Assembly (NCBI GenBank): GCA_030599585.1
Contig: JAUVNS010000002.1
Span: 32,001 to 96,000 of the forward strand
Direction: 5' to 3'
DNA from: Promethearchaeota archaeon
Lineage (GTDB): Archaea > Asgardarchaeota > Lokiarchaeia > Sigyniarchaeales > SOKP01
Length of the DNA stretch: 64,000 nt
The position numbers were made by a program, and so were the translations under genes. The notes under the pieces are model-generated. The model ran no database searches. It was not told where the DNA came from and worked only from the letters and a program-made list of their open reading frames with translations. Shown here in pieces: positions 652 to 18,441 of this stretch (positions are counted from its first letter, which is position 1; every line of letters starts with the position of its first letter).

Positions 652-3483
652 TTAATTGCTTTTAATTGTCAAAATTAATTTGGATATATTATTATTTGAT
701 TCTTCAAGTAATTTAAAAATCTCTTCTCTTTCAAAAGTGGATAACTCAGTTCTTTTAAATTTTGATCTTAACAAATTTATGCGATCTCGTATTAATTTTG
801 AATGTTCTAAGCAAGATCTTCTCTCTTCTGATATTTTGATTTTCTTAACTAATCCAGTAAATAATATTTGAATTCGCTTTTTATCCTCAATTTCTTGATT
901 TAGAATTTGATCAATTATACTACTTTTTACTGGATCATTAATTATAAATTTAAATTTTTTAATCATATTAGCTTTCAATATCTTTTTTTTAGAGACAAAT
1001 TTTTTGTCAATATTATTCCTTAACCAGAGAAAAGTCATGTTTTTGATTTTCTCTTTCATTAAAATTAATTCTCTACCTCCTTTCCCTGTGTAAACTCCTA
1101 ATTTCGATAATTCAGAGTTTAATACTTCAAAATGTTCGAATATATCAAATTTTTCAATAATATAAAAGTCATTCTCTAAGCCATTTTCTACTAAAAATTC
1201 TTCCATAAGATCATAAAGAAATCTGTATGTCGAAATTTGATTAAAATCAATGTTAAAGATTTCACAAATTTCTTCGTGTTTAATCTCATTATTCACCATA
1301 TTTATTAACAATTTTAGATCTTTTAAATCAAATGGTTTATTCAATTCATACTTCGATTGAATATTAATTTCTGATTTTAATCTACTTAATTCCTTAGTAG
1401 TTAAATCTTTTGGGAACTGAACGATTTTGATAAAATTCTTTGAGTTAAAGGCTGTATCTGTTAATATTGGGCTTAAAATATTAGATAATTTTATTGTTGC
1501 TAACCTTTTATTTCCATCTATAATATTACCATAATAAGAGACAAGTATTGGATCAGTCTGCCCTTTATTTTTATACATTTTAACATATTCATTCGATTTT
1601 TCATCAAAGTTTAAATAATTAAGAATTATTTTTTCAAAAATAGGATAATTTTCGATATTATCTTTAGAAATATGAATTCCAATCCTCCTTTCAAATTGAT
1701 TAATAATGTGTAAAAAATAGTCGCTATCAATATCTAATTTTAAGTATTTAGCTTCAATTTGTTGAATTGGGAAACTATAATGTTTAAAATTCCACAGATT
1801 GATTTTATCGATTGAATCTTCAACATCAGTTATTATTATCTCTAAGTTTTCCTCGCGGAATTGAAATTTTTTATAATTAATGAGAATTTCATATAATTCT
1901 TTCGAATTGACATGAAGTTCTCTAAAAGATTCTTGAACTTTTTCATTCTCCATAATATTTTTCAAGATACTTTTAGCTAAGGATATTTTTTCATTTTCAA
2001 TTAGGTATTTTGATTTTAATATTTGGGAAAATATCATGTGTTCAAGAGGTATATAATCAAATTTATTGTATAGCTGAAATAAATGTTTTAATATTTTTAA
2101 TGCGGATTTGTTATTTCCTTTTGAACTTTTTTCTCTGGCTACAAGATATAATTTGTATCTTTCAAGATTTTTAATTTCTTTGAATTTATGGCTTAATGAT
2201 CTTTTGTTTTGATAGTATAATGCTTTTTCAACCCTTTTTAAAGCATTTGTAAAATCTGATTGTTCAAAAAGCAATCTTGCTTGAACTTCTTCTCTATAAG
2301 CGTTAATAATAAAAAAAATATCTTCTACAAAATTACCTTTTAATAGAGAAGAGATCGATTGGTATTGGTTTCTTAGAAAATTATTACAAATATTAAGACA
2401 ATCTTGATATTCATTTTTATATAATGAATTTTTCACTTTGACATAAATATATTTTAATAATGAACGGTAATATCTTTTTATATACTTTTCCTCTTTGAAA
2501 GAAGTCAGATCTTTATATGATTTAACATAAGAAGCTAACGCGATTTCTTGATCTTCAAATCTTTTCTCTTTTTTATAAAAGTATGCTAGACCTTCATAAT
2601 AATATGCTTCTGATATCTTTTGTTCATATTTTTTGTTTCTTAATTTAAAAAAATATTGAGCAAAATCATAACAAATTAAAGACAATTCTTTATTATCATT
2701 GAAATAGCAAATCTGGCCAATTGTATAGAAATATTTGGAAAAACAGAATTGAATTATTTTATCATCATAGCCCATTGCAATTTTTATTGATCTCATATAA
2801 AGTTCAGATTTTTTTCTTAAACATTCATTATTTTTTTCTGTTAATTTCCTTGCTTCGTCTAGGTAATAATTTAATAGTTTGCGATCTCCTCTATTTTTAA
2901 ATCTATAAAATTTATTATCCTTATATTTTTCTGCTAATGTTGCGATAACTAATATTTCTTCAATATCTTCTGACAATAATGATTCTAAATCATCTTCAAA
3001 ATCCAAGAAATAACTCAATTTTTCAAAATGATAATGAGAAATTATTCCTTTCTTTTTCAAAAGTTTATTATAAATAGCTTTGAATACTTCATATTTAGAA
3101 CATGAGAACCCTAATTGCTCAAAATCAGCTAATACTATTTCTAATTCATTTTTTGTTCTAATAACAAAGCCACTTTTACCTAAACCGAGTATCATGTTTG
3201 CAAACATTCTTTTATAAGTAATTTTCAATGCTTCTTTATTTCCGGGGAACAGCTTAAAAAAAGTTTTAAGTGCATTAATAGAATCTATATATAACGCGCT
3301 ATGACAATTTTCTGCATTTGTTGTTATTTTTTCAAAAAGGCGCCAACCTAAAGCTTCTTTATCTAAATTACGTTCTCTGATAATTAAGCGAATCGCATTA
3401 TCATTAAATTCTTTATTAGTAATAATTAAATTATATATCTCTTCTATATACTTATCATTAAGGAGTTCTTCTTTTAGATTCAT
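652..3483 (-). CDS. Helical-repeat (TPR-like) protein with a C-terminal ParB/Srx-like domain
   Basis: N-terminal ~540 aa is Tyr/Lys-rich helical repeats (YYYEGLAYFYKKEKRFED, FTNALKRVEKALYY); C-terminal part has GQTDPILVSYYGNIIDGNKRL and aligns with the 419-aa protein. Confidence 0.7.
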   Translation of the reverse strand: MNLKEELLNDKYIEEIYNLIITNKEFNDNAIRLIIRERNLDKEALGWRLFEKITTNAENCHSALYIDSINALKTFFKLFPGNKEALKITYKRMFANMILGLGKSGFVIRTKNELEIVLADFEQLGFSCSKYEVFKAIYNKLLKKKGIISHYHFEKLSYFLDFEDDLESLLSEDIEEILVIATLAEKYKDNKFYRFKNRGDRKLLNYYLDEARKLTEKNNECLRKKSELYMRSIKIAMGYDDKIIQFCFSKYFYTIGQICYFNDNKELSLICYDFAQYFFKLRNKKYEQKISEAYYYEGLAYFYKKEKRFEDQEIALASYVKSYKDLTSFKEEKYIKRYYRSLLKYIYVKVKNSLYKNEYQDCLNICNNFLRNQYQSISSLLKGNFVEDIFFIINAYREEVQARLLFEQSDFTNALKRVEKALYYQNKRSLSHKFKEIKNLERYKLYLVAREKSSKGNNKSALKILKHLFQLYNKFDYIPLEHMIFSQILKSKYLIENEKISLAKSILKNIMENEKVQESFRELHVNSKELYEILINYKKFQFREENLEIIITDVEDSIDKINLWNFKHYSFPIQQIEAKYLKLDIDSDYFLHIINQFERRIGIHISKDNIENYPIFEKIILNYLNFDEKSNEYVKMYKNKGQTDPILVSYYGNIIDGNKRLATIKLSNILSPILTDTAFNSKNFIKIVQFPKDLTTKELSRLKSEINIQSKYELNKPFDLKDLKLLINMVNNEIKHEEICEIFNIDFNQISTYRFLYDLMEEFLVENGLENDFYIIEKFDIFEHFEVLNSELSKLGVYTGKGGRELILMKEKIKNMTFLWLRNNIDKKFVSKKKILKANMIKKFKFIINDPVKSSIIDQILNQEIEDKKRIQILFTGLVKKIKISEERRSCLEHSKLIRDRINLLRSKFKRTELSTFEREEIFKLLEESNNNISKLILTIKSN

Positions 3484-3570
3484 TTTTTTACACCGATTTT
3501 TTCGTTATTAATACAAATTGGAATTGGAAATCATTTAATTTAGAAATATGGTTTTAAAAATCATATATAA

Positions 3571-4647
3571 CTATTTTAAACCATCATTTTCATAATTATC
3601 ATTTTCTCTTTCAATATCTGAAAATTTCATAGTTTCGTGCCTAAAACTGTCAAATGGAACTTCTACTTCATATAATGTAGGTTTCAAGGGTATTATTCCA
3701 TTTTCAACTAAATAGTGAACATTATTGAATTTCTTAAGAGTATTATTTTTTAAATTGACAAAATATATCCAATAATCTTCATTAAATTTAATAGAAGTTG
3801 AGTACTCATTTCGCGAGAGAAAAAAGCGTGAGTTTAGGCTATTAGTTGTTTTGACTTCTATATATTTACTACTCCCATCTTTATTAACAGATAAAATATC
3901 ATAACCCTTGTCAACATAATCTCTTGCGATTAGTCTAACACGGTTTATTAAATTTGGATCAGGAAATTTATTTACCTCTTGTTTTTCTAATCTAAAAGCT
4001 ATATTCTCTCCTAAAGTCCCGATAATTTTTTGTTTTTTTAAGATTTTTTCTAAATCATCCTCAGTAAATTTTTTTCCCATTAAAATTTTCTTCCAATAGT
4101 CCTCATAATCCAAAATTTCAGGGTGAAATTCAACCAGGTTTTCTGAAATTTGAAGATTAGCCTCCCAATAGTGATTTAGATTTGTAGATAATTCGAAGAA
4201 ATCATCCTCCATAGAATCAGACAATAAATTCAATGTTTTTAACATCGAAATAAGAACAGCGCAATATTTTGAACTGTGTAATTTATAAATTAAAAATCTG
4301 TCTTCTTTTTTTATTGCATATTTTTGTAAATCTTCAAATATCCAATTATTTAGCATAAACTCTTCAATTAGTTTCATCTGTAAATCTGTTATTTTTATTA
4401 AAGAATCTTGATCTGAATGACTTAAATAGTGTTCTCCAAATTCAGTTAAATGAATGATATTATTCTCATTAGAATAAAAAAAATTTAAGGTTTTTCCTAA
4501 TTTTAAACCTAAATCTGAATCACACGTACTAAGCAAGGGATTTTCCTTAATATATCGATCAAATTCATTATAGGGCATTCCTACCCCGATTGCCCTATAC
4601 TCCAATACTTTTTTTAAGATTAAATTAAATTGCCATAAAAAAGTCAT
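3571..4647 (-). CDS. DUF3883 (NO VEIN C-terminal) PD-(D/E)xK nuclease-domain protein
   Basis: GTLGENIAFRLE...GYDILS...KYIEVKTT...FFLSRNEY matches the DUF3883 signature; N-terminus is wHTH-like (IHLTEFGEHYL). Confidence 0.85.
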   Translation of the reverse strand: MTFLWQFNLILKKVLEYRAIGVGMPYNEFDRYIKENPLLSTCDSDLGLKLGKTLNFFYSNENNIIHLTEFGEHYLSHSDQDSLIKITDLQMKLIEEFMLNNWIFEDLQKYAIKKEDRFLIYKLHSSKYCAVLISMLKTLNLLSDSMEDDFFELSTNLNHYWEANLQISENLVEFHPEILDYEDYWKKILMGKKFTEDDLEKILKKQKIIGTLGENIAFRLEKQEVNKFPDPNLINRVRLIARDYVDKGYDILSVNKDGSSKYIEVKTTNSLNSRFFLSRNEYSTSIKFNEDYWIYFVNLKNNTLKKFNNVHYLVENGIIPLKPTLYEVEVPFDSFRHETMKFSDIERENDNYENDGLK

Positions 4648-4666
4648 TTAAATTACCCGAAATTAA

Positions 4667-6616
4667 TTAAATATCATCATAAAAAATTTCAAACTCTTCA
4701 GCATCAGGTTCGTTTGAAAAACCAATAAAAGATTCTGTATCATTTAGAATATGAAGCATATCTATTTCTTTTTCAATTAAGCGATTATGGATTTTATGAT
4801 CGATCGTTCCTTGAGGTAGATCGTCAGAAACTGATACTAAATAATAATATGTGATCTGATCATCATCTTCTAAACCAATTCTGTGAATTCTATCTTTTGA
4901 TTGAATAAATTGGCCACAATTATAAGACCTATCAACATAAATTGCATCGTGGCATACTTTATGGAGGGAAATTGATTCTGCGCAAGCTTGCGGATTAGCA
5001 ATTAATATAGAAAACTCATGAGGATCTTTTTTAAACCGGGAAATATAGTCTTCTCGGGATTCTTCGGTATAAATACCATTTCTTAAATCTTTTGCTTTAG
5101 ATTTAGGAGTATCTCCAATGATTAGAAAAACATGATCCTCCCCAAATTCCTCCTTGAAGAACTCATATAAGGTCTCAAGATTAATTATAAACTCGGACCA
5201 AATTAGGATTTTCTTTATATTTTTTTCATTTTTTAATTTTCTTACTAATTCAACTGTTTTTAACAATTTTGGGGAACATTCATAATTTGAATATATCTCC
5301 AAATTATTAATTACTTCCAGAATTTGATTGTCTGCTTCAATATTCTGAGATTGCCCAGCAATTTCATCTTTTAAAGATTCTAAACCATATTCTGTAGATT
5401 TTTCCATTAGTAAATTTAAATTTGAAGAAATTTGTCTTAATCTAACAATTAAACAATTTTTGTAACTATTTATTATCTCAAAATGAACTAAATTTTCAGC
5501 ATATTCGATAATATCCTTCCATCTTTCACTTACTAACTTATACAATGCTAATTGAGATGGAGAAAGGGGCACTTGAATCACCAATTCCTTTGGTTTTGGT
5601 AGATTCATTTGCGTTTTAGAGATTCGAGTAAAAAAAGGGTAAATTTTTTCTTTTATATCTTCTATAACTGAAGGGTTGGAGTTTCTAGTAAGATATTTAA
5701 AATGATTTTTATCACCTAATAATGCTCCAGGATATAAAAATGAGAATTGTGCAAAAAGATCATGAATATTATTTGGGACGGGTGATCCTGTTAAAATAAT
5801 TTTTGCTGAGCTATAAGGAGATAATCTGAGGATCGCAGAGGATCTTTTACCATCAATATTTTTGATATTATGAGATTCATCCAATACCAACACAAAACTA
5901 TATTTACTGAGTAGATCAATCAGATATCTTATATCTCTACGAGCAGTTTCATATGTTGTTAAAAATATATCAGTATCCGAAATAAGTGTCTCATCATTAT
6001 AATATTCTATCCTATCCTTTTTTCTACCATGAATTCTAATTAAGTTTGGAAGAGGCTCTTTAAAACATTCCTTGATTTCTTCTTCCCATGGCATCAATGA
6101 ACTATAAGGTCCAATTACAAGCAATTTATCAACAATCCCCTCATTTTTCAAAAAATCAAATCCTGCTAATACTATTGTTGTCTTTCCACTTCCAGGAACA
6201 CTAAAGTTTGCCACGCATTTTAATTCTATAAAATGATATACCGGCATCCTTTGATAATCAATTAATATTCTTTTAAAAGAAGGAGGGTTTTCTGAAAAGA
6301 TATTATCATGTTCTTTTATAGATTTGCCAACTTCAACTAAATCTATAATATCAACACGAGTTTTCAAATTAGTTAGAAAATTTTCTAAAACTTGTGTCTT
6401 TTTAATTTTATAATCTTTTTGTTGTTTTAAATACTCAAAAGAAAGAAGGGCTAGTTCATGATTTAATTCAAAATTTTCGAAAGTATATTGAGTGTCTTTT
6501 GGATTAGAGACTTTGTACCCATAATTATTCAATTTTACTCTAGTTTTAGCATTTGGTTTTTCTTCAAATCTTAAGATAAGGTTTCTTCTTTCATAATCCG
6601 CTATAATATTGTTCAT
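4667..6616 (-). CDS. SNF2-family (SF2) helicase/ATPase
   Basis: PGSGKT, LTTYE, VLDESHNIKN, LTGSPVPN, RLRQISSN, SPKL, QSKDRIHRIG. Confidence 0.93.
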   Translation of the reverse strand: MNNIIADYERRNLILRFEEKPNAKTRVKLNNYGYKVSNPKDTQYTFENFELNHELALLSFEYLKQQKDYKIKKTQVLENFLTNLKTRVDIIDLVEVGKSIKEHDNIFSENPPSFKRILIDYQRMPVYHFIELKCVANFSVPGSGKTTIVLAGFDFLKNEGIVDKLLVIGPYSSLMPWEEEIKECFKEPLPNLIRIHGRKKDRIEYYNDETLISDTDIFLTTYETARRDIRYLIDLLSKYSFVLVLDESHNIKNIDGKRSSAILRLSPYSSAKIILTGSPVPNNIHDLFAQFSFLYPGALLGDKNHFKYLTRNSNPSVIEDIKEKIYPFFTRISKTQMNLPKPKELVIQVPLSPSQLALYKLVSERWKDIIEYAENLVHFEIINSYKNCLIVRLRQISSNLNLLMEKSTEYGLESLKDEIAGQSQNIEADNQILEVINNLEIYSNYECSPKLLKTVELVRKLKNEKNIKKILIWSEFIINLETLYEFFKEEFGEDHVFLIIGDTPKSKAKDLRNGIYTEESREDYISRFKKDPHEFSILIANPQACAESISLHKVCHDAIYVDRSYNCGQFIQSKDRIHRIGLEDDDQITYYYLVSVSDDLPQGTIDHKIHNRLIEKEIDMLHILNDTESFIGFSNEPDAEEFEIFYDDI

Positions 6617-6623
6617 TGTTTAA

Positions 6624-7883
6624 TTAGTCCTCATCATCCTCTTTTAATAAGAAAATAATATCATTTATCTTCTCTTGATTTTGCTCCATTATTCCCAACA
6701 ACCTTTCTTCATCGATTTCAGTTTCTCCTTCATCTATAACATTTTGGATTCCATCTAATTTATCAGAAATCTGTTCAGCAAGAGTATAGATTTTTTCTTC
6801 CTTCTCACCTTCACGTATAGAATTAATTGCTGCTGTCATCAATTTATGGACTTCTCTCTTTCCTGAGACATTTTCATCCAGAGAGAGCACTTTTTCCACA
6901 GTATTTCTTAAGTCATTTCTATGTACAACTGAATTCAATTTTCTGATAACTTCTCTACTTTTCATTACCTTTTTTTCGGCAATCATTTCTGGATCTATGT
7001 TATTTTTTAACCATTTAAAAGCTAATTCTTGCATTAAGTCTAGTTCACGATCTAATTCAACTCCCTGTAAACCTGTATATCGAGCATGGCCTCTATTTAA
7101 CTTTCGCAGCTCTCTAAAATGATCAAAAAGATTTCTTTTATCGATTATTGTATACTTCTTCTCTATATCATTATCTTCCAAATAAAGTTCAATTAAATTC
7201 AAGACTTCTTCAAATTCTTCAACATCAGCATCAAATAGGTTGAACATTTTTGCTATCTCAGTTTTACTATAATTAAATGATTTTAATTTTCTTACAGCAA
7301 GAGCCTGATTTATTAAGGTATAATTTACTCTTTCATCTATAAATAATTGATTAAAAGTCTGAATTGCAAGCAACTGGCTTTTGGATAATCCTGAATCTAA
7401 CCTTACTACATCCATATGTTTATATTTATCATAGTTTCCTTCAGTTTTTACTTTTTCTTCCTGATACAATTGCCTTATAACCATATATCTTCTATTGCCG
7501 TCCAGTATTATCCCACCGTTAGTGATAATACCTGGGACTTCTTGTTGAGTATTAGAAATACTTTTCTTCAATTTTGATGTTTTTGTTTTATCAGATCCAC
7601 GCTGAAGTGTATCTTCAAATATTCCTGCATAAATCTCGCGATCTGACAAATTTTCAAAGTCCAATTCACTTCCTAATTTATTTAGTTCTTCTATTAACTG
7701 ACCCTCAATTCTCATATTATCAAAATTATATGTTAAAAATTCAATTGGAACTTTAACTACTTTTAAATCTTTCATAGTACCATCGAACCATCTTATCCGA
7801 TGTGTTCTTTCTGTAATTGCTATAACTCCATTAATTTCAATAAAATTATTTATTCTTAACGAATTCTCCTCTTCAAAAACCAT
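6624..7883 (-). CDS. ParB/Srx-like N-terminal domain protein with HTH and helical C-terminus
   Basis: VPIEFLTYNFDNMRI...QQEVPGIITNGGIILDGNRRY (ParB/Srx GxxR motif); YSKTEIAKMF is HTH-like. Confidence 0.8.
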   Translation of the reverse strand: MVFEEENSLRINNFIEINGVIAITERTHRIRWFDGTMKDLKVVKVPIEFLTYNFDNMRIEGQLIEELNKLGSELDFENLSDREIYAGIFEDTLQRGSDKTKTSKLKKSISNTQQEVPGIITNGGIILDGNRRYMVIRQLYQEEKVKTEGNYDKYKHMDVVRLDSGLSKSQLLAIQTFNQLFIDERVNYTLINQALAVRKLKSFNYSKTEIAKMFNLFDADVEEFEEVLNLIELYLEDNDIEKKYTIIDKRNLFDHFRELRKLNRGHARYTGLQGVELDRELDLMQELAFKWLKNNIDPEMIAEKKVMKSREVIRKLNSVVHRNDLRNTVEKVLSLDENVSGKREVHKLMTAAINSIREGEKEEKIYTLAEQISDKLDGIQNVIDEGETEIDEERLLGIMEQNQEKINDIIFLLKEDDED

Positions 7884-8259: not shown

Positions 8260-8381
8260 TTACTGTTTTTTCTCATATTAAAATTAAAATCATTATTATA
8301 TTTAAATATTATTGTTTTTTTCTAATAATATTGAGAAAAAGTAATATTTATTAATACGGACTGATAATATTAATTAAAAGA
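8260..8381. promoter_or_regulatory. Divergent promoter region with TATA-like boxes and imperfect inverted repeats (candidate CARF-HTH operator)
   Basis: Palindromic TATTTAAATA at 8299-8308; TTTATTAATA ~26 nt upstream of ATG 8382; TTTTCTCATATTA (8268-8280) is nearly inverted to TAATATTGAGAAAA (8326-8339). Confidence 0.45.
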
Positions 8382-9065
8382 ATGAGATTAAGTGATCCTA
8401 TGAAAATCCAAATCGCTTCATTTGCGTTAGTGCCTGACCATATTTTTATAGCTGAAAGATATTTTCATACTGAGAAAATAATTCTGATCTTAAGCGAAGA
8501 GAATAAGGAAAAACAAGCCAATAACAATGAGGAAATTAGCTCTAAAATTAATGAGGTGATTGGATTCTATGAAAAATTAAATGTTCCCGTAGAAAAAATA
8601 TATGTGAATTATAAGAACTTTATGGAAATGACTTTGAAATTAGCCAGATTACTTAAAATGTTTTCTCCTGATGACCAAATTTTGTTGAATCTTAGCGGTG
8701 GTCGTAGGTCAATCCCGATTTCTTTAATATATGCGGGAACCTTTATTAGTAATTTCAAGGATATTAATATTAAATGTGTAGTTATACCTGAAGACAAGAC
8801 TTATACTCCATTTAACTTGTTACCAAATTATTTACCGGACGAAATCGATATCAATCTAATGTCAAGGTTACCACAGAATTTAACCCTAACTGATTTAGAA
8901 AAGGATTTAGGAATAAAGCAACCTACAATATCAATTAGGTTAAAAAGGCTTGAAAAGTATGGATTCATAACCATGAAGGGAAGAAAAAGAGAATTAACGG
9001 ACTTAGGACTATTAATGGTCGACATTACTAATCTGGAATTCAATAAAGAGGATGAGGTAAACTAG
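8382..9065 (+). CDS. CARF + winged-HTH transcriptional regulator (Csa3-like)
   Basis: CARF motif ILLNLSGGRRSIPISL; C-terminal HTH LTDLEKDLGIKQPTISIRLKRLEKYGFI...RELTDLG; alternative start at 8400. Confidence 0.88.
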   Translation: MRLSDPMKIQIASFALVPDHIFIAERYFHTEKIILILSEENKEKQANNNEEISSKINEVIGFYEKLNVPVEKIYVNYKNFMEMTLKLARLLKMFSPDDQILLNLSGGRRSIPISLIYAGTFISNFKDINIKCVVIPEDKTYTPFNLLPNYLPDEIDINLMSRLPQNLTLTDLEKDLGIKQPTISIRLKRLEKYGFITMKGRKRELTDLGLLMVDITNLEFNKEDEVN

Positions 9066-9066
9066 T

Positions 9067-9909
9067 ATGATAACCTGGATAACAACTGTAGGATGGAGTC
9101 CATTTGCGGTTATAAACCCGATATGGGCGTATTGTAAGGAAAATGAGAAAACTCCAGACAAGTTATTTCTTATACACACCGAAAATATGAAGGTATTAAA
9201 AAACGTAGAAACTTGTAAAAAATATCTCAATGAGATTTTACGAGAATATTCCAATAATAATTTTAAAGAAGAAAATTTAATCAGCTACCAGATTGAAAAT
9301 GAGACCTACGAAATATATTCCCTCGCAATGAAAAAAATAATAGACCGGGAGCTTAAGGATGATAAAGCAAAGATAATCTTAGATATGACTCCAGGTAGAA
9401 AATATATGTCAGCAATTAATATGTTTTTCGGTCTAAAAGCATTAAATAATTCAATTCAGGTTCTTTATCTCTATTTAGAAGAAGCTAAATACCAAAAAGT
9501 TCCATATCCATTAACACCAATAATTAAAAATGAACTAGTAGACATCATTGAATCAGCTGAAATATTTTCTAAAGATATTATTATTGATGAGGTGATAGAT
9601 CCAGATGATGAAATTATCAAAAACATTTCTGACATAGATCTTTTGAGAAAGTTTCTGGTTTTAAGGGCTATAGTAAAAGATTTCAATACAATCACGAAGA
9701 TAAAAAAATATTTTTTAGCTAAGAAACAAAGCATTAGAAGCATAGAACTTAGACAAATTCTTAAAGAGTTGCTGGAAGGTAAATATGTAAGTATTACTAA
9801 AGTCCCAAACAAAAAACAAAATTACTTTTTATACAAAAATCTTGAAAAAGCAGATAAATACATAGAAGAAACATTAAATCAGCTTAATATCGGGGAGGAT
9901 GGTGGCTGA
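9067..9909 (+). CDS. CARF domain protein with a C-terminal wHTH-like domain
   Basis: CARF motif I ITTVGWSPFAVIN, TPDKLFLIHT, motif II ILDMTPGRKYMS, VLYL; C-terminal LRQILKELLEGKYVS...YFLY. Confidence 0.82.
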   Translation: MITWITTVGWSPFAVINPIWAYCKENEKTPDKLFLIHTENMKVLKNVETCKKYLNEILREYSNNNFKEENLISYQIENETYEIYSLAMKKIIDRELKDDKAKIILDMTPGRKYMSAINMFFGLKALNNSIQVLYLYLEEAKYQKVPYPLTPIIKNELVDIIESAEIFSKDIIIDEVIDPDDEIIKNISDIDLLRKFLVLRAIVKDFNTITKIKKYFLAKKQSIRSIELRQILKELLEGKYVSITKVPNKKQNYFLYKNLEKADKYIEETLNQLNIGEDGG

Positions 9910-9915
9910 TTAAAT

Positions 9916-11031
9916 TTGATTGATATAAAAACTATTTTAGAAAAATATATTCTATTAGACTCAAACGAATTTGTTATGTTCTTCAATGAACTTTTTTTAG
10001 ACGCTAAACACCACTTAACAATAAAAGATGCGCTCTATGGTTTAGATTTATTTGATATCAAAATTTCGGACCAGATTGAAGTAGAGATACTAATTGATTT
10101 AGATCTGATCAACCAAAACAGAAAAAATATGCCAATTAATACTCAAAATGAGTTTCCAAACAAATCTCGATTTTTTGAGATATTCCTCAAGTCAGGTCTA
10201 TTTTTTAATAAATATTACAGAGGTTCTATTGATCATATTCTACGAGATATGGATCAAGTCAATCCCCTTAATGGAGATCTTCCCATAGCGATATCTTTTG
10301 ATACGAATCTATATTTCAATCATTTTTTTAGTCAGATGTATCCAATGTTACTTGAACGATATGGAGCCCCAAGGTTTCCAATCAAATTTCTCATGTCGGA
10401 AGGCGTTAAAAAAGAACTTACTCGCTATGAAAAGAAGTATAAGCAACATGATATAGATGATTTGAAAAATGTTGTGAAATATCCCTCAATTATACAAGAT
10501 TTCTTTAACCAATCCACATTAACTTCCCGCTTATGGCATTTAGGGCATAGTGACTTTTTAAAATGTATTGATAATGTTAATTATAAACTTGTTGATGAGG
10601 ATACTTCAGTTAACCATAACGATATGGACAATAAAATAATTAATGGGTTATTGAAGGAAATAAAGCAACAAAATATTAAATTGTTTATTTTAAGTCAAGA
10701 TTCTGATTTCATTGCAAGATCAAGAGGAAATAAGAATTTAGTTGCCAAATTTTTGGATAAAATTCCATACTCAAAACTTAAACAACTATACTCAATTAGC
10801 TGGGAGAAATTCGTAAGATTCATTTACACGCTTTCAGTGACTTTTGGAGCAATTATTTTAGAGTTTAAGGAAAAACCAATTATCGTTATACAAGGAATTT
10901 GGCGCGGAAAGAAATTGTTTCATTGGGAAAATGAAACCATGAAGGTTTGTTCTGCCAATAATTTACTTAGTAAGATTGAAAGAGATTTAACCATCTTGAG
11001 AAATATTAAATTAGAGGAGGGGGTAAATTAA
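9916..11031 (+). CDS. PIN-domain ribonuclease
   Basis: PIN acidic motifs ISFDTNLYF, GVKKEL, DMDNKII, FILSQDSDF. Confidence 0.8.
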   Translation: MIDIKTILEKYILLDSNEFVMFFNELFLDAKHHLTIKDALYGLDLFDIKISDQIEVEILIDLDLINQNRKNMPINTQNEFPNKSRFFEIFLKSGLFFNKYYRGSIDHILRDMDQVNPLNGDLPIAISFDTNLYFNHFFSQMYPMLLERYGAPRFPIKFLMSEGVKKELTRYEKKYKQHDIDDLKNVVKYPSIIQDFFNQSTLTSRLWHLGHSDFLKCIDNVNYKLVDEDTSVNHNDMDNKIINGLLKEIKQQNIKLFILSQDSDFIARSRGNKNLVAKFLDKIPYSKLKQLYSISWEKFVRFIYTLSVTFGAIILEFKEKPIIVIQGIWRGKKLFHWENETMKVCSANNLLSKIERDLTILRNIKLEEGVN

Positions 11032-11056
11032 TCATGGTAATCTGGAGGTTGATTGC

Positions 11057-13813
11057 GTGAGTAATCTTTACTATGCTAATTTAGATATTCCTAGATATGA
11101 AATTGAAAAAGCTAATGCTTACTACAGGCTCAAAGATTTTATAAATTATTTAAGATTAGCAAAAGAAAATCAAGAGCGTCAAAAACATGCAATTTTTTGG
11201 AAATTCTTGAAACCAGAATCTATAGAGGAAATTATTAAAAAAAGATTTATTTTAAAAACTTCTAGAGAGGAACCTTACGATGAATGGACTTTGAATGAAT
11301 TAGGTGAATACATTGAGAATGATTATGATCTGAATACTAAATTACAATCTGAAATTCAAAAGGAATTTAACCAGATATCAGATGAGGAAAAAATATGGAT
11401 CAAGATTTCTGATAAGAATAGGACAGAGGAAGGATATAAACTAATCCAGAAATTTTTTCAAAATAATTTAATTTATGATTCTCCTGATCTTTTAAAGGAA
11501 AATAGTGTTAGAGTTTTAAGTAAGGATAGAAATTACAATGCATTAATCATTAATCGTAAACCTAAGAGCGAAAAAATTTATGTAAAATATCGAGCTATCC
11601 CCTTAATTCGTCAATTAGATGCACTCCTTAATTTACAGAAAAGACCACTTAAGGCTCATCTGCCTTTATTAAAATTGGTTATGAATAAGTACTTCGCAAG
11701 GTGGGCACCTGTTGATGTAAATACAGCAAACATAATTCAATGGCATCTTCTTAAAGATGATAATCGTAATGGAATAGAGAAACAGAGAGAATTTGTAAAA
11801 ATAGCTCTTAGTACTCCTGATTTTGCAATCTTAGAAGGACCCCCTGGGTCCGGAAAAACCTATACAATCTGTGAGTTAATACTGCAATTAGTAAATCTAA
11901 ATAAGAGAGTTTTGTTATGTGCATCAACGCATGTCGCTGTGGATAATGTCCTTGAGAAAGTTAAAGATAAAAAAGCAGTAATAGCTATAAGAATTGGAAG
12001 AGATAATATATCTGAAAAGGTTAGAGAATGTCAAATAGATGAAATTGAAAAGTATGAGAGTAAAAGGATAAGGAAGAATCTACTGATAAGGAAAAAAAAA
12101 GGAGCCATCACAGATAGTCAAAATTACTTATTAGAATGTTTACAATCAAATAAATCTAATATAATACGAGACACATTTCTTGATGCAGCAAATCTAATTT
12201 GTGGTACGAACATTGGAATTCTTAATCATCCAAAAATAAAACTTAATTTAAAAAATACTGTAGCAAATATCGATTACGACTATTTAATACTAGACGAGGC
12301 TAGTAAGACTACATTTCAAGAGTTCCTAGTCCCAGGGATGCTCGCTAAAAAATGGATCATTGTTGGTGATTTTAAGCAATTATCTCCTTATGTAGACGCT
12401 GAGGATTTGGAAGGTAATTTAATAGGTTTATTGAACCCTAAGGAAGAGATAGTATGTACTGATATTTTCGAAAGCTTCCTTAATTCTTCCAAATCTAAGA
12501 AAAATGTTAATTATTGGATGAACAGTTTAATAATAGAAAACGATGATAAAATAAGAAAATTGTATGAAAAACAAGCTAAAGCACTAGGTTTAGATTACAT
12601 TAGAATTGAAGATGAAAAATATAATAAATTTGAATTGTTAGGCTCTCAAATAATAATTACATCTGAATCATTAGTAAAAACAATAGAACATGATTTACCT
12701 GTTAATATACATCATATACGCGGAGATTTTCAATTAACTAATTTTAAAAGAAGAAGAGAGTTTTGGAAGAAGCATTGCAATCCAAAAATTTATGAAGATG
12801 ATAATGAGAATAATATACTAGAAAAAGAAAAATGGCCTCATCAAGTTGCATGGAGATTAATAAGAGCTAATGAGACGAGAATTACTAAAGAGAATCATGA
12901 ATACTATTTGAATCAATTGAAAGGACTGTATCCTAATTTTCAATTGTTAAATTCATCCAAAGATGAAGATATTGAAATTGAAAAAGATGTTGAAATTGAC
13001 ATTAATGAAAAACTTAAAGAAAAAATTGATTTAATTAGCACTATAGGATTACCATCAATTATTGAATCTCTCCAAAATGGAATAAAATCAAGTGTAAAAA
13101 GTAAATATCCATACATCCTTTCTGAAGGTTTTGATAAAGAAGTTCTTAACACAAGGCATGTATTACTTAACTACCAATATAGAATGCATCCAGAGATCTC
13201 AGAATTCCCCAGAAAATATGTGTACAATAATGATGCTCTCAAAGATTATCCAGGAACGAATAGAGAATGGAATTTTCCAAGATATGAAAATAAACGCATT
13301 GTATGGGTAAATACGTTGGGAAGTAAAGACTCTGAACTGAACATGAACCGTTCAGAAGTAGAGAATATTATTTTTGAACTAAAAGAATTTATGAAATGGT
13401 CGGAAAGAGGGGGAAGATATAAAACATGGGAAGTAGCAATTTTAACTTTCTATCGTGCTCAAGAAAGGCTGATTAGACGAGAATTACAAAAATTTTTCGC
13501 AACAAAAAGTAGAAGGTTTTTCAATTCAACGAAAATGAATGTTGCGGTTGAGTTATGTGTCGTTGATCGGTTCCAAGGACATGAAGCTGATGTTATTTTC
13601 TTATCTTTTGTTCAAACCCAAAAAGAAGGTTTTTTAAATAGTGTGAATAGATTAAATGTTGCCTTGACCAGAGCTAAATATCAATTAGTCATTTTTGGTT
13701 CTCATAAGTTTTTTATAAAAACAAAATCAGAAATTTTAAGAAATCTTGCTGAATTTTGTATGAAGAATATAATTATACCTTTTAGAGGAGGGAAAAAAAT
13801 TGGATACAATTAA
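11057..13813 (+). CDS. Upf1/DNA2/NAM7-like SF1B helicase (AAA_11/AAA_12)
   Basis: EGPPGSGKT, ASTHVAVDN, ILDEAS, VGDFKQL, QYRMHPEI, VDRFQGHEAD, RLNVALTRAK; SD GGAGGT upstream of the GTG start. Confidence 0.95.
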   Translation: MSNLYYANLDIPRYEIEKANAYYRLKDFINYLRLAKENQERQKHAIFWKFLKPESIEEIIKKRFILKTSREEPYDEWTLNELGEYIENDYDLNTKLQSEIQKEFNQISDEEKIWIKISDKNRTEEGYKLIQKFFQNNLIYDSPDLLKENSVRVLSKDRNYNALIINRKPKSEKIYVKYRAIPLIRQLDALLNLQKRPLKAHLPLLKLVMNKYFARWAPVDVNTANIIQWHLLKDDNRNGIEKQREFVKIALSTPDFAILEGPPGSGKTYTICELILQLVNLNKRVLLCASTHVAVDNVLEKVKDKKAVIAIRIGRDNISEKVRECQIDEIEKYESKRIRKNLLIRKKKGAITDSQNYLLECLQSNKSNIIRDTFLDAANLICGTNIGILNHPKIKLNLKNTVANIDYDYLILDEASKTTFQEFLVPGMLAKKWIIVGDFKQLSPYVDAEDLEGNLIGLLNPKEEIVCTDIFESFLNSSKSKKNVNYWMNSLIIENDDKIRKLYEKQAKALGLDYIRIEDEKYNKFELLGSQIIITSESLVKTIEHDLPVNIHHIRGDFQLTNFKRRREFWKKHCNPKIYEDDNENNILEKEKWPHQVAWRLIRANETRITKENHEYYLNQLKGLYPNFQLLNSSKDEDIEIEKDVEIDINEKLKEKIDLISTIGLPSIIESLQNGIKSSVKSKYPYILSEGFDKEVLNTRHVLLNYQYRMHPEISEFPRKYVYNNDALKDYPGTNREWNFPRYENKRIVWVNTLGSKDSELNMNRSEVENIIFELKEFMKWSERGGRYKTWEVAILTFYRAQERLIRRELQKFFATKSRRFFNSTKMNVAVELCVVDRFQGHEADVIFLSFVQTQKEGFLNSVNRLNVALTRAKYQLVIFGSHKFFIKTKSEILRNLAEFCMKNIIIPFRGGKKIGYN

Positions 13814-14900
13814 ACTTAAAAGAAAAGTGGAAATTCAAAGATTTAGAGCTATAATTGATTTAGGAAGGCAAAGAGAAAAAGAAGTCTATATAGCAATATT
13901 AAAACTGGCACAAGAAAATGAGGGGATAATTACACCAGAATTAATAATTGAGAGTTTCTTCGAGGGAAGACCCATAGATTTTGCAATTAGAATTATTCAA
14001 AATTGTAAAATAGATGGTTTATTTGATGATTATGGACATATTTCTGAAGAGGGGAAGGTTGCATTAAGTGAAAATAAGATATTTCTAGGAGAGAATGGAG
14101 CTTATGAATTTTGGACTACTTTAGATCCACTAATTCCCCAATTAATCCTTGACATTAAACTAATTGATGTACGCCAAATGAATAAAAAAGCAAATCGTGG
14201 TTCAGTAGAAGTAATTCCAGATTGGATTAAAAATCTGGAAAATCAAAAAATTAACCTCCTTAACAAGAATAAAGATGTTATAAAAATTTATGAGTTTCTC
14301 CCTCAAATTGAAGTATTAAAAAACTATTTAAATGTTACTGTTCACTTTCATATTACTCCATTAGAAGTATCTGAAGAATCCAAGCTAATGGTTGCTGGAG
14401 ATTTAAGGAAAAATCTAACTCAAATTCCAAAATATTCATTTGAAGAAATTTGGTTTTCTCTATTAGGAATTGAGAAAAATAAATGGGATCCAAATAAATC
14501 TGCATTGCTCTACAATTTTGAAGATGTTAAGGACAATAATTCAAGGATGAGTTTTTCTATCGATAAACAATTTCAAAGACCTGATATTTTAGATTTAGGT
14601 AAGTTTGAGGATGTATCTGTCAGGAATATTCCAATAATACCCGTCAACGAGAAAGAAGCAAATATATGGGCAAATTGGATATTAGAACAAGAGATTAATA
14701 ATTATACATATGAGGAATCATATATAGAAATATGCTACGGTATTGCTTCCAAACCTCAGTTTTCAGATTTTCAGATCGCCTTTCCATCACAAATAGAGCT
14801 TGCTGAAAAATTCATTAGGAGAGAAGATAACGGAGAAATAAAATTTTTAGAGAAATTTTGGTATTTACAAACACCAATAGATTTAAGAATTAAAAATTAG
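13800..14900 (+). CDS. Hypothetical helicase-associated protein, N-terminal wHTH-like
   Basis: Overlaps the helicase stop; AILKLAQE...IIQNCKIDGLFDDYGHISEEG resembles a wHTH; no catalytic motif recognised. Confidence 0.7.
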   Translation: MDTIKLKRKVEIQRFRAIIDLGRQREKEVYIAILKLAQENEGIITPELIIESFFEGRPIDFAIRIIQNCKIDGLFDDYGHISEEGKVALSENKIFLGENGAYEFWTTLDPLIPQLILDIKLIDVRQMNKKANRGSVEVIPDWIKNLENQKINLLNKNKDVIKIYEFLPQIEVLKNYLNVTVHFHITPLEVSEESKLMVAGDLRKNLTQIPKYSFEEIWFSLLGIEKNKWDPNKSALLYNFEDVKDNNSRMSFSIDKQFQRPDILDLGKFEDVSVRNIPIIPVNEKEANIWANWILEQEINNYTYEESYIEICYGIASKPQFSDFQIAFPSQIELAEKFIRREDNGEIKFLEKFWYLQTPIDLRIKN

Positions 14901-14912
14901 AGGGTTTTTAAA

Positions 14913-16493
14913 ATGTTTGAAATAATTCAGAAGCAGAAGGAAATTGATTTAAGAAGAGAAGAAATTCCTCATTGTTGGATTTATAAAGAATCTAATCAAG
15001 ATTTAGCATTAAATAATTATTTTAAGAATACACAATTATCAGATGACATTTGGTTGAGTGGTCAAGATCGGAAATTGCTTATTCAATTAATAAATTCAAT
15101 CAAAAAGGCAAGGAATATCATATGTTTATCAACATTTATTTTTAGTAGTAAAGAAATCAAGGATGAACTTATAGAAGCAAGTAAAAGAGGTGTGAGAGTT
15201 TATATGATTACTGCATCAAATAAACATTTAAAATCCTTACCTGAAGATGATGATAATTTCAACAAGCATATGTACGTGGAAATGAGCGAATTATTTAATG
15301 AGTTACAAGGAATAGTAAAAATAAGAACATCAGAAAACTTTCATACAAAATTCTTATTAATTGATCCAGGAAGAGATGAGATTTCTGAAGGTTATCTACT
15401 TACATCTAATTTTGATACAAAGGGATTGATCGGTAGGGATATTAAAGGGATTTATCATGTTAATCAAGAAATAGGTATTTTTTTAAATAAAAGAGAGGTT
15501 GAGGATCTTTTTAAGCAATTCTGCTTAGGTTTTTGGGAGTTAAGCAAAGAAGAATCCAAAGTTGATGGTTTTTATCCTTTAAATAGCAATATTCAACAGA
15601 ATTTTACCTTTAATAATCTTCTACTCAATTCTCCTAATCATAAGTCTTTAAAGAATGAAATAATTAATATTATTTCAAGTACCAGAGGTAAAATATTTAT
15701 CAGTACTTATGGTATTACGGACGATAATGAGATCTATAATTTAATTTTAAATGAACTTGTTGAGAAAAAAAGAGAAGTGTTCATTTTAACTCGACCCCGA
15801 GTAACTAAAATGGAAAGTTTAATTAAGTTATCACAAAATGGAGCAAAAATTTACGGACACTACGATATTCACGCTAAACTCGTAATTGTTGAAAATATAA
15901 ATAATCCACAAGGCATAGTTATGACAGCTAATATTGATAATATTAGTTTTGAAAATAGTTTTGAAACAGGAAAAATCTTAGATCCAGTTCAAGCAAGAAC
16001 ACTTTTAAATGTAATTTATACTTGGATTAATTATTTCCCATTGGAATTAATGTGTAATATTGAGAGAGGAAAATTGGATAGATATGCTCTAGTTTGGAAT
16101 AGATTAACAAAAACATTGGATCGTAAAAAAGTAATATTTGAAAAGATTGAAGAATTAAAACCAGAGTATGCAAGTTCTATCTTACATTACAGAAATTATG
16201 AAATTTCAAATAAAAAATTAGATTTTGTTGAAAGTAATTCTGAAATCGTTCAAAAAATGGTCTTTAAATACAAAGTAAAACCCCCAATCAAACCAGTTAA
16301 TGCAAAAACATATTTGGAAGAAGCGGACAAAGAAAAATCAAAATCAAAGAAAAATAAGAAAAATTTTCAATTCTTTCTTCTAAACAATCAAAGTTATATT
16401 GTAGTTAAAAATGACGATGAGTTAAAAGAAGCAATAAAAATCACAGAAAAATCAAATGTAAAAATAGTAACTCTCGAGAAATATCTCTTTTAG
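14913..16493 (+). CDS. Phospholipase D-family nuclease with two HKD-type motifs
   Basis: FHTKFLLID...LLTSNF and IHAKLVIVE...VMTANI; also LIEASKRGVRVYMI. Confidence 0.9.
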   Translation: MFEIIQKQKEIDLRREEIPHCWIYKESNQDLALNNYFKNTQLSDDIWLSGQDRKLLIQLINSIKKARNIICLSTFIFSSKEIKDELIEASKRGVRVYMITASNKHLKSLPEDDDNFNKHMYVEMSELFNELQGIVKIRTSENFHTKFLLIDPGRDEISEGYLLTSNFDTKGLIGRDIKGIYHVNQEIGIFLNKREVEDLFKQFCLGFWELSKEESKVDGFYPLNSNIQQNFTFNNLLLNSPNHKSLKNEIINIISSTRGKIFISTYGITDDNEIYNLILNELVEKKREVFILTRPRVTKMESLIKLSQNGAKIYGHYDIHAKLVIVENINNPQGIVMTANIDNISFENSFETGKILDPVQARTLLNVIYTWINYFPLELMCNIERGKLDRYALVWNRLTKTLDRKKVIFEKIEELKPEYASSILHYRNYEISNKKLDFVESNSEIVQKMVFKYKVKPPIKPVNAKTYLEEADKEKSKSKKNKKNFQFFLLNNQSYIVVKNDDELKEAIKITEKSNVKIVTLEKYLF

Positions 16494-16545: not shown

Positions 16546-16842
16546 TTATTCGTTTTCTTTTTTATTGCTGTGCGTTTCTATACTGTAATACCAGTGTTTC
16601 ATATGGTATGGCATGTATATCAGATCACATATCTTAGCAGCAGCGAGAGCTTTTGCAAATCTTTTTTTTGTAGTTTCATTGCCCCTTGCGTAAAACTCAT
16701 TAATTGGAAAAATCTCATTAGCCTTTACCCAAATTTCAAAACAAAAGCTTGAATTGATTGTTGGAACTTCTTTATACTTAATAGACACAATAAGTCTTTT
16801 TTTTTGTAGTTCATCTAAAGTATTTATTGGATTATTTAACCC
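16546..16842 (-). pseudogene. dsRNA-binding-domain-like reading frame, probably the frameshifted 3' half of the 16836-17360 gene
   Basis: Frame stays open upstream of the GTG at 16788 to 16842: GLNNPINTLDELQKKRLIVSIKYKEV...FCFEIWV...YARGNETTKKRFAKALAAAKICDLI. Confidence 0.5.
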
Positions 16843-17360
16843 TTACCTATATCTTTATATCTTACTTGAAAGTTATCTCGTATATCGATTTCATTGGGAT
16901 CACTTATGTCAGTGAAAAATTTGTAGTATTTCATCTCATCATCTTCGATTTCAAATTTCCAAAAACTCATTTCATCTGTTGTGTAGTCCCAACTTTCAGA
17001 ATTAACAGCCAAGCCTGTGATAGATTTAATATCAGAGTTTATTTTTTTGAAGGCTTTCATATAATCTATCACTTGCTTTCTCAATTCTGTAGGATCTTTT
17101 TTTTTACATTCTACAATTAAAAATTTTCCTAAACCATCAGTAAAAACTAAATCTCCTTTTCCTTTGTCTGTTCGGCCTTGTACAACTTCCCATTCATAAT
17201 CGTAAGCATATTTATACTCTCTGAATTGAGGCATTTTCTCTGCAAGATGATTGATAACCTCTTTGACAATTAAAAATTCAGGATTTTTATCCCAATTTCT
17301 ATTAATAATGTAAGAGCGAATAGTATTATCCCTATGTTTTAAAATCTTTTTATTTCTCAT
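16836..17360 (-). CDS. PD-(D/E)xK restriction-like nuclease domain protein
   Basis: YEWEV...GKGDLVFTDGLGKFLIVECKK...RKQVIDY (D...ExK...QxxxY). Confidence 0.7.
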   Translation of the reverse strand: MRNKKILKHRDNTIRSYIINRNWDKNPEFLIVKEVINHLAEKMPQFREYKYAYDYEWEVVQGRTDKGKGDLVFTDGLGKFLIVECKKKDPTELRKQVIDYMKAFKKINSDIKSITGLAVNSESWDYTTDEMSFWKFEIEDDEMKYYKFFTDISDPNEIDIRDNFQVRYKDIGKG

Positions 17361-18000: not shown

Positions 18001-18441
18001 TTAATTTTTAAATCCTTCAGCATCCAATCGGTCATTACACAATTTATCGCATTTTTGGATGTAGGGATTATTCCTTCCCACATGAAAAAACTCCACCTTT
18101 TCGTATTTCTCGCACAGCTTATAGACCTCGCTGCACATTTTCGATAAGTGTGGATAGTTGATTTTCCATTTCTTATTGATTTGCTGGACTGCTAAGTTGC
18201 TATCAGAATACACTTGAATGTGCCCTCGTGAGAATTTTTCAGCAACTTTTAAAGCGTTAATTATAGCTTGATATTCGGCAGTATTGTTTGTCGCAGTTCC
18301 AATAAAAACACACTCATCGCGGATAATTTTATCATTATGAAGGAATAGAAAAGCGCTAGCAGCGGGTCCGGGATTGCCGCGTGAGGCACCATCCACATAA
18401 ATTTTAAGTTTATCTCCTTTTTTAACGGGACTGTTGTTCAT
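18001..18441 (-). CDS. rnhA: Ribonuclease HI
   Basis: IYVDGASRGNPGPA, TNNTAEYQA, VYSDS, HVGR...CDKL. Confidence 0.93.
   Translation of the reverse strand: MNNSPVKKGDKLKIYVDGASRGNPGPAASAFLFLHNDKIIRDECVFIGTATNNTAEYQAIINALKVAEKFSRGHIQVYSDSNLAVQQINKKWKINYPHLSKMCSEVYKLCEKYEKVEFFHVGRNNPYIQKCDKLCNDRLDAEGFKN

Follow-up and report, generated by a model that had tools for sequence, protein, structure and literature searches.

A six-gene CARF-PIN and helicase-adaptor-PLD operon in a Lokiarchaeial genome: a candidate anti-virus locus made of three exchangeable blocks

Two described kinds of system come closest to the locus considered here. Mokosh defence requires the ATPase site of its helicase and the active site of its phospholipase D (PLD)-family nuclease (Millman et al., 10.1101/2022.05.11.491447). 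CoCoNuT systems (Bell et al. 2024, PMC11090510) have helicases that are typically followed by an elongated winged helix-turn-helix (wHTH) domain fused to nucleases, in type III-C to two PLDs; the wHTH may bind a helical insertion after the Walker A motif of the helicase, RtcR-type CARF regulators head such operons, and an echeloned RNA-targeting defence has been proposed for them. The locus in question is an operon at positions 8382–16493 of a 64,000-nucleotide stretch (hereafter the window) from a Promethearchaeota archaeon of the Sigyniarchaeales (GCA_030599585.1, contig JAUVNS010000002.1, positions 32,001 to 96,000 of the forward strand). The original prediction, made from this stretch alone, was of six co-oriented genes with intergenic gaps of 1, 6, 25, −14 and 12 nt, encoding two CARF-wHTH proteins, a PIN nuclease, a UPF1-type helicase, a protein without assignment and a PLD; all of this was confirmed, as all six open reading frames (ORFs) lie intact on the + strand and the catalytic motifs are present in all of the enzyme genes. 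On balance we favour the reading that these genes form an inducible, two-tier and probably RNA-targeting anti-virus operon composed of three exchangeable blocks, the functions being predicted throughout. The parts are of known kinds, and a description of the six-gene combination was not found in the searchable literature.

The last three genes constitute the core. The helicase gene, g4 (11057..13813, + strand, 918 aa), encodes a UPF1-like superfamily 1 (SF1) helicase of the MkoA/CnuH type with AAA_11/AAA_12 domains and intact motifs I–VI; it matches MkoA with an E-value of 2e-81, the match starting at g4 residue 80 and covering model positions 459–1085, and it carries a helical insertion after Walker A at about residues 330–380. 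The nuclease gene, g6 (14913..16493, + strand, 526 aa), matches PLDc_2 in two stretches (E 1e-18) and MkoB only weakly (E 0.006), and has two HKD motifs, H144-x-K146-x4-D151 and H320-x-K322-x4-E327, the second with E in place of D. Between them lies g5 (13800..14900, + strand, 366 aa), here called X, for which no Pfam, PADLOC or NCBIfam family was matched, although it has relatives in 377 clusters at 50% identity; its entries in the ESM Atlas are unnamed clusters only, and Foldseek gave no match against the PDB at E ≤ 0.001. In its AlphaFold2 model (pLDDT confidence score 96) a wHTH at residues 26–92 sits between long beta-strands (VIA Z 9.3, root-mean-square deviation 1.7 over 65 aligned residues), and the beta-rich C-terminal part, barely tested by VIA, found no structural match. 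When helicase residues 240–873 were modelled together with X, the complex scored 0.61 and the best of three controls 0.00. Of 80 solved complexes 58 attain the mark used for this score, as do 2 of 110 mismatched pairs. At least 89% of contacts were common to the runs, with a partner pLDDT of at least 80. The model supports binding without showing it, and places X residues 27–68 on helicase residues 334–379. This is the contact proposed for CnuE and CnuH (PMC11090510), and we read X as a predicted elongated-wHTH adaptor of the helicase. The original prediction of an extra subunit is upheld. X stands between helicase and PLD in all 49 loci with visible flanks, and likewise on two Vibrio plasmids. 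No relative of X was found among viral contigs.

Mokosh types I and II share with this core a COG1112/UPF1-like helicase and a PLD nuclease. Mokosh I, however, is a two-gene system with a Ser/Thr kinase on its helicase, whereas family scans found no kinase family match in g4, as had been anticipated, and here an obligatory X stands between helicase and PLD and CARF regulation is added; Mokosh II fuses helicase and PLD, which are separate ORFs here. Membership in Mokosh was rejected on these grounds: no kinase and an extra gene as against type I, and no fusion as against type II. CnuH-CnuE of CoCoNuT types II and III, especially III-C, likewise combine a UPF1-like helicase bearing the insertion with a following elongated wHTH, a two-PLD effector and a CARF head, the likeness of X to CnuE resting on the predicted fold and the modelled interface as set against the published description. 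In contrast to CoCoNuT, neither the six genes nor their neighbours include McrB/McrC (CnuB/CnuC); McrB and McrC queries taken from a Sutcliffiella locus (L059) had no match in the host genome, and a search of it with PF09823, run without a positive control, gave no match. Moreover, the wHTH of CnuE is fused to the nuclease, whereas X, with about 260 further residues, and the PLD have an ORF each, here as in every other locus seen; longer, fused forms of X did not turn up in our search, which is weak evidence. The regulator is RtcR in CoCoNuT and of the archaeal CARF3/CARF_m1-PIN kinds here, and CoCoNuTs are nearly absent from archaea, where this operon resides. Membership in CoCoNuT was rejected because no CnuB/CnuC was found and the wHTH is not fused to a nuclease. 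By analogy, CnuHE appears to be as close a model for the core as Mokosh. The earlier proposal that a CARF/PIN module is joined to a Mokosh-like one stands as regards domains and co-linearity, but has to be amended in that the CnuH-CnuE model is equally close and that three recombining blocks are involved. Within the searchable literature no named system matches in full, as had been supposed, and neither the core on its own, nor X, nor the archaeal coupling to CARF-PIN was found described there, although CARF classifications may hold a brief earlier mention of CARF_m1, CARF3 or RtcR-PspF neighbourhoods with this helicase. What appears to be new is the viperin-less co-linear Lokiarchaeial form, the exchange of three blocks, the palindrome as a candidate operator, the model of helicase and X, the bacterial form with its RtcR-type gene and the link to HrAgo1, all considered below or above.

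Genes g2 (9067..9909, + strand, 280 aa) and g3 (9916..11031, + strand, 371 aa) match the N- and C-terminal parts, respectively, of one and the same PADLOC model, CARF_m1--CARF_PIN (PDLC01973; E 2e-27 and 3e-22), and in a relative (L038) CARF-wHTH and PIN are fused in a single 701-aa protein; we therefore regard them as the sensor and effector halves of a split CARF-PIN. The CARF_m1-type CARF of g2 occupies residues 1–163 and a PadR-like wHTH residues 185–280, and in the structural comparison by VIA the modelled CARF reached Z 13 to Csm6, SiRe_0806 and Sso2081 and the wHTH Z 11.7. The wHTH is lineage-specific, being absent from the short type III-linked and the Heimdall-type relatives. The best profile match of g2 is the ring nuclease Sso2081 (E 1e-6), and its nearest solved relatives, Sso2081 and SiRe_0806, are binders of cyclic tetra-adenylate (cA4). 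The ligand pocket is invariant and contains Crn1-like motifs, G9-x-S11, N17 and D106-x-T-P-G110-R111-K112, of which G9-x-S11 (motif I) and G-R-K (motif II) match, at each residue of the alignment, those of the Crn1 Sso2081, described as catalytic in PMC10018336; unlike that enzyme, g2 carries a wHTH at its C-terminus and is partnered by a PIN protein, and T10 is replaced by W. Judging by these motifs, g2 may degrade the ligand that it binds and so reset itself. In the PIN domain of g3 the acidic residues D129, E167 and D262 are invariant and D238 is conserved in 97%; a profile of this domain had no match among PDB sequences. The CARF_m1 CARF-PIN ancillaries of type III systems (Msed_1167, ST0035; SiRe_0806, PDB 9JXW/9JXX) have cA4 pocket motifs in common with g2, but differ in that here the protein is encoded by two genes, its CARF bears an additional wHTH, this genome yielded no type III system, and a helicase-PLD core is attached.

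The first gene, g1 (8382..9065, + strand, 227 aa, start possibly at 8400), encodes a Csa3/CARF3-like CARF-wHTH transcription factor. It matches the PADLOC models CARF1/CARF3 (E 3e-21) and Csa3 (5e-18), its nearest solved structure is Csa3, and its ligand-pocket motif NLSGGRR is conserved; against TIGR01884 (Csa3) it scores 40.8 bits, under the cut-off of 60.2. The CARF plus wHTH layout, motif II and a palindromic candidate operator are shared with Csa3 and HFX_2341, but unlike Csa3, g1 heads a non-cas defence operon, no cas genes having been found in its neighbourhood. The palindrome, an inverted repeat ATATTATT-N10-AATAATAT (8306..8331, no strand assigned), overlaps a TATA-like box at 8301–8308 and is a candidate operator for either g1 or the g2 wHTH. 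Of 15 upstream regions, 14 contain it with at most two changes, and its arms are conserved at 0.87–1.0 (0.67 at one position) as against 0.47–0.67 for the spacer's 3' half; perfect copies number only two in the 4.85-Mb genome. In a shuffle control the 14 compare with a mean of 0.5, a contrast that is overstated, as the pattern was derived from these same related, AT-rich upstream regions. A scan for sigma-70 promoters and terminators, which is not suited to archaea, gave results at chance level.

The complete gene order recurs in ten other Lokiarchaeial loci (L010, L016, L018, L047, L050, L063, L065, L067, L068 and L070; L and G numbers denote loci and genomes), the recurring six-gene loci being 28–90% identical to this operon, and part of it in five loci truncated by contig ends. 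Since the same order recurs elsewhere, the operon is more than the chance adjacency of two modules. Its distribution is patchy: among some 42 genomes of its genus only 2 were found to have it, and the core is in 30 of 400 genomes of the phylum. Without this head (g1–g3), the core occurs across Asgard archaea, Thaumarchaeota, Thermoplasmata, Sorangium, Bacillaceae, Bacteroidia and the two Vibrio plasmids, so that the notion of an Asgard-specific system was abandoned in the face of bacterial, plasmid and other archaeal cores. A core subtype with longer helicases and PLDs without HKD motifs was seen in L055, L059, L060, L064, L094 and L096; in L059 and L064 an AAA+ ATPase gene stands before the helicase, and in L059 McrB and McrC precede this gene and the core, a CoCoNuT-like arrangement.

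Nor did the idea of one fixed six-gene system survive. Cores lacking the head, heads followed by different cargo, and trees in conflict with one another all indicate three separately recombining blocks (g1; g2-g3; g4–g6). This is most apparent from block-wise identities: L010 and L016 are 81/68/76% identical over the head and 41/28/29% over the core, whereas L016 and L063 are 84% identical in g1, 47/50% in g2-g3 and 71–75% in the core, from which it follows that the three blocks have been exchanged as such. Furthermore, the head precedes three helicase lineages, the branches of a quick tree forcing three changes, and the tree of g2 plus g3 disagrees with that of the helicase. A fixed six-subunit system was accordingly rejected, with core, head and g2-g3 all found apart. 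The head is often divergent from thiC (L018, L061, L064, L070, L075; thiC identified by Pfam or, for the others, by N-terminal likeness), which suggests a hotspot at a fixed place in the chromosome whose cargo varies. In two loci (L066:6821-10277 and L076:5929-9425) a cassette of DUF4145 plus an AAA_12 fragment, a radical SAM protein and a class III aminotransferase, possibly a small-molecule defence pathway, sits directly after the head or after the whole operon.

Cores with catalytic PLDs nearly always adjoin a CARF gene, of the CARF3 type in archaea and of the RtcR type in bacteria. Among cores without this head but with HKD-bearing PLDs, about 20 do so, as detected by a CARF hidden Markov model seeded from such neighbours, 12 of them being independently confirmed by PADLOC as CARF3-type; cores without an adjoining CARF are those in contig-truncated loci and the subtype with HKD-less PLDs. 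The bacterial PLD gene is followed by one for an RtcR/PspF-type CARF-AAA-HTH protein (E 2e-157 in L100; truncated in Sorangium), a position taken by sigma54 regulators on the two Vibrio plasmids. In distant Asgard archaea and Thermoplasmata, CARF3, CARF_m1 and PIN genes adjoin the core in other orders (L052, L079, L083, L084). In the host genome the only strong CARF genes are the two of the operon, with two weak candidates besides, so that the adjacency of CARF and core is not a matter of background. Viperins also adjoin many cores, in distant Asgard archaea and Thermoplasmata often in front of the helicase, and none was found over the cut-off in the host genome; they lie divergent from the head or directly before the helicase in L016:3730-4563 and L066:3222-4046 (the latter by N-terminal likeness), and likewise in L011, L079, L084–L088, L090, L092 (with an amino-acid-kinase-family gene), L093 and L101. 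Together with the DrmD/DrmMI/DruE-like island upstream of the window, the low G+C content and the patchy spread, these viperins sustain the defence context that had been proposed. The operon has a G+C content of 0.29 as against 0.33 elsewhere and forms the end of a low-G+C stretch (0.277 over 1–17 kb of the window, 0.333 beyond) that runs on upstream of the window into that island.

Whether the operon is independent of CRISPR has two answers. The host genome, a metagenome-assembled genome (MAG) of 4.85 Mb in 52 contigs (100% complete, 8.9% contamination), yielded no Cas10, RAMP, SMODS nucleotidyltransferase (CD-NTase), mCpol or CRISPR array in a genome-wide search, although absence is unproven in a MAG of so many contigs. 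Cas10 was likewise not found in G104, G082, G242 and G243, which all carry CARF_m1-PIN and are 82–97% complete, nor in the single-contig G050, which has CARF3 and the core. On the other hand, G016, G063 and G064 carry Cas10 (in G016 elsewhere than at the operon), close CARF-PIN relatives, among them the nearest stand-alone ones, are located within type III loci (L040–L043, L083), and the six-gene operon of L016 abuts a type III-A locus. These relatives and carriers imply, at the sequence level, that the g2-g3 block is CRISPR-related in origin and only facultatively independent of CRISPR; the label "CRISPR-independent" is thus appropriate for this genome but not for the origin of the family.

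In the reading we favour, g4 would move along single-stranded nucleic acid, most likely RNA, at the expense of ATP, X would dock through its wHTH on the helical insertion of g4, as modelled, and would bring in the PLD g6, since the gene order is invariant and a wHTH-PLD fusion exists in CoCoNuT III-C; the core would thereby act as a split CnuHE or kinase-less Mokosh nuclease machine. A g1 dimer would bind the palindrome over the TATA box, with a nucleotide ligand gating transcription. As a second tier, g2 and g3 would act together as a CARF-PIN RNase that is gated by a ligand, that brings on dormancy or death as an abortive back-up, and that might be reset if g2 cleaves its own ligand. This ligand would probably be oligoadenylate-like, cA4 supplied in trans where type III systems are present, and an oligonucleotide derived from infection or RNA cleavage where, as here, no cyclase is found. 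Its identity is the weakest step of the explanation. Cleavage by Zucchini-type PLDs and by most PINs yields 3'-OH ends, and a 2',3'-cyclic-phosphate ligand would therefore need another nuclease. Tentatively, one can go further and imagine a cyclase-free circuit in which infection-derived or core-generated oligonucleotides are read by the two CARFs, one switching on the operon and the other releasing the PIN, and in which the core is a general RNA-processing engine that other Asgard lineages plug into viperin loci and, in Ca. Harpocratesius, into the operon of the PIWI-like HrAgo1, with a likeness there to the Armitage and Zucchini components of piRNA biogenesis; we consider this doubtful. Several points weigh against the favoured reading. 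The host genome yielded no cyclase as a ligand source, the choice of RNA over single-stranded DNA as the core substrate is made by family analogy only, and the supporting contigs often come from a few sediment studies, so that the locus count overstates independence. For the CARF-PIN ST0035, cA4 binding was weak and there was no activation (PMC6546367). The head stands before other cargo in L066 and before an Eco57I-type restriction-modification system in L072, and g2-g3 occurs without g1 or helicase in L049, which means that head and core need not act together.

A rival explanation that we consider unlikely, though worth taking seriously, is that the head is a Csa3-like regulator plus a VapBC-like addiction cassette, g2 neutralizing the PIN, at a defence hotspot of which the core is the commonest captured cargo, transcribed along with the head but independent of it in function. 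The cargo swaps between L010 and L016 and between L016 and L063, the three helicase lineages, the discordant trees and the cargo of L066 and L072 would all be expected, and g2 has gained a PadR-like wHTH of the sort that antitoxins often carry; yet the ligand pocket of g2 is invariant, and a hotspot alone is insufficient to explain why unrelated CARF types (CARF3, CARF_m1, RtcR) repeatedly joined the core, in varied orders and phyla. That both CARFs instead read cA4 made by a type III Cas10 acting in trans, missing from the assembly or recently lost, is improbable in our view. It would account for the close CARF-PIN relatives within type III loci, the operon abutting III-A in L016, the Cas10 genes of G016, G063 and G064 and the cA4-binding nearest relatives of g2, but the motifs are intact even though a 100%-complete genome yielded neither Cas10 nor RAMP nor an array, and no Cas10 was found in G104, G082, G242, G243 or G050. 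Finally, a UPF1-like helicase, RNases and RtcR-type CARFs beside bacterial cores might bring to mind housekeeping RNA surveillance or a stress response akin to nonsense-mediated decay or Rtc, the "RNA-stress" alternative of the original prediction. With so patchy a spread, a low-G+C defence island, plasmid carriage, frequent exchange and no rtcA or rtcB seen beside the operon, we find this very hard to sustain.

If correct, the favoured reading defines a three-gene helicase-adaptor-PLD defence core in archaea, bacteria and plasmids, which PADLOC would call a partial Mokosh at best, and assigns a predicted role to X, a family without annotation. It also makes testable what CARF domains detect where a genome has neither Cas10 nor CBASS, and the plasmid of Vibrio rumoiensis, which bears the bacterial version (helicase, X, PLD and RtcR; WP_089138966-969), offers an easy test case. 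Moreover, the core of the HrAgo1 locus bears on the origin of piRNA-type pathways. In Ca. Harpocratesius repetitus FW102, of the order of the host, one locus (L055:1529-12424) contains rnc, HrAgo1, helicase, X and a PLD-fold gene; its 817-aa protein matches PDB 8R3Z, HrAgo1, over the whole length (E 0), the helicase (1276 aa) is a UPF1-like SF1 enzyme with AAA_11/AAA_12 domains, and the PLD-fold protein (762 aa) has no HKD. The HrAgo1 paper (10.1101/2023.12.14.571608) called the helicase DExD/H and Dicer-like and nowhere mentioned a phospholipase. By its domains, however, this helicase is of the UPF1/MOV10 type and not Dicer-like, and the parts list looks closer, by analogy and in this one locus, to Armitage/MOV10L1 plus Zucchini plus PIWI, with a PLD that looks inactive.

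DNA contigs from sequencing runs, possibly of the source sample, tile the operon, and no RNA run is listed among the runs that contain it. In one run of the same study (X2) a contig joins window positions 15010 and 17345 via 35 other letters; this hints, from one contig only, at a strain lacking most of the PLD gene. The 3' flank of the operon contains a 174-aa PD-(D/E)xK-like ORF (16836-17360, − strand) without a PADLOC match and an RNase HI-like gene (18001-18441, − strand) called from sequence motifs. Upstream of the window, and continuous with the operon locus, the DISARM/Druantia-like island (L097/L098, G000:C24:7972-32616) comprises an ABC-ATPase pair, a DrmD-like SNF2 protein, two methyltransferases resembling DrmMI, a DruE/YprA-like helicase of 1946 aa and a TPR protein; a similar large helicase adjoins the head of L047. 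Between this island and the operon, a divergent four-gene operon (652-7883, − strand) encodes a ParB-like protein (419 aa), an SNF2 helicase (649 aa), a NOV_C/DUF3883 nuclease (358 aa) and a 943-aa protein without a family, the C-terminal third of which resembles the ParB-like gene there (E 2e-16), and is possibly another undescribed defence system.

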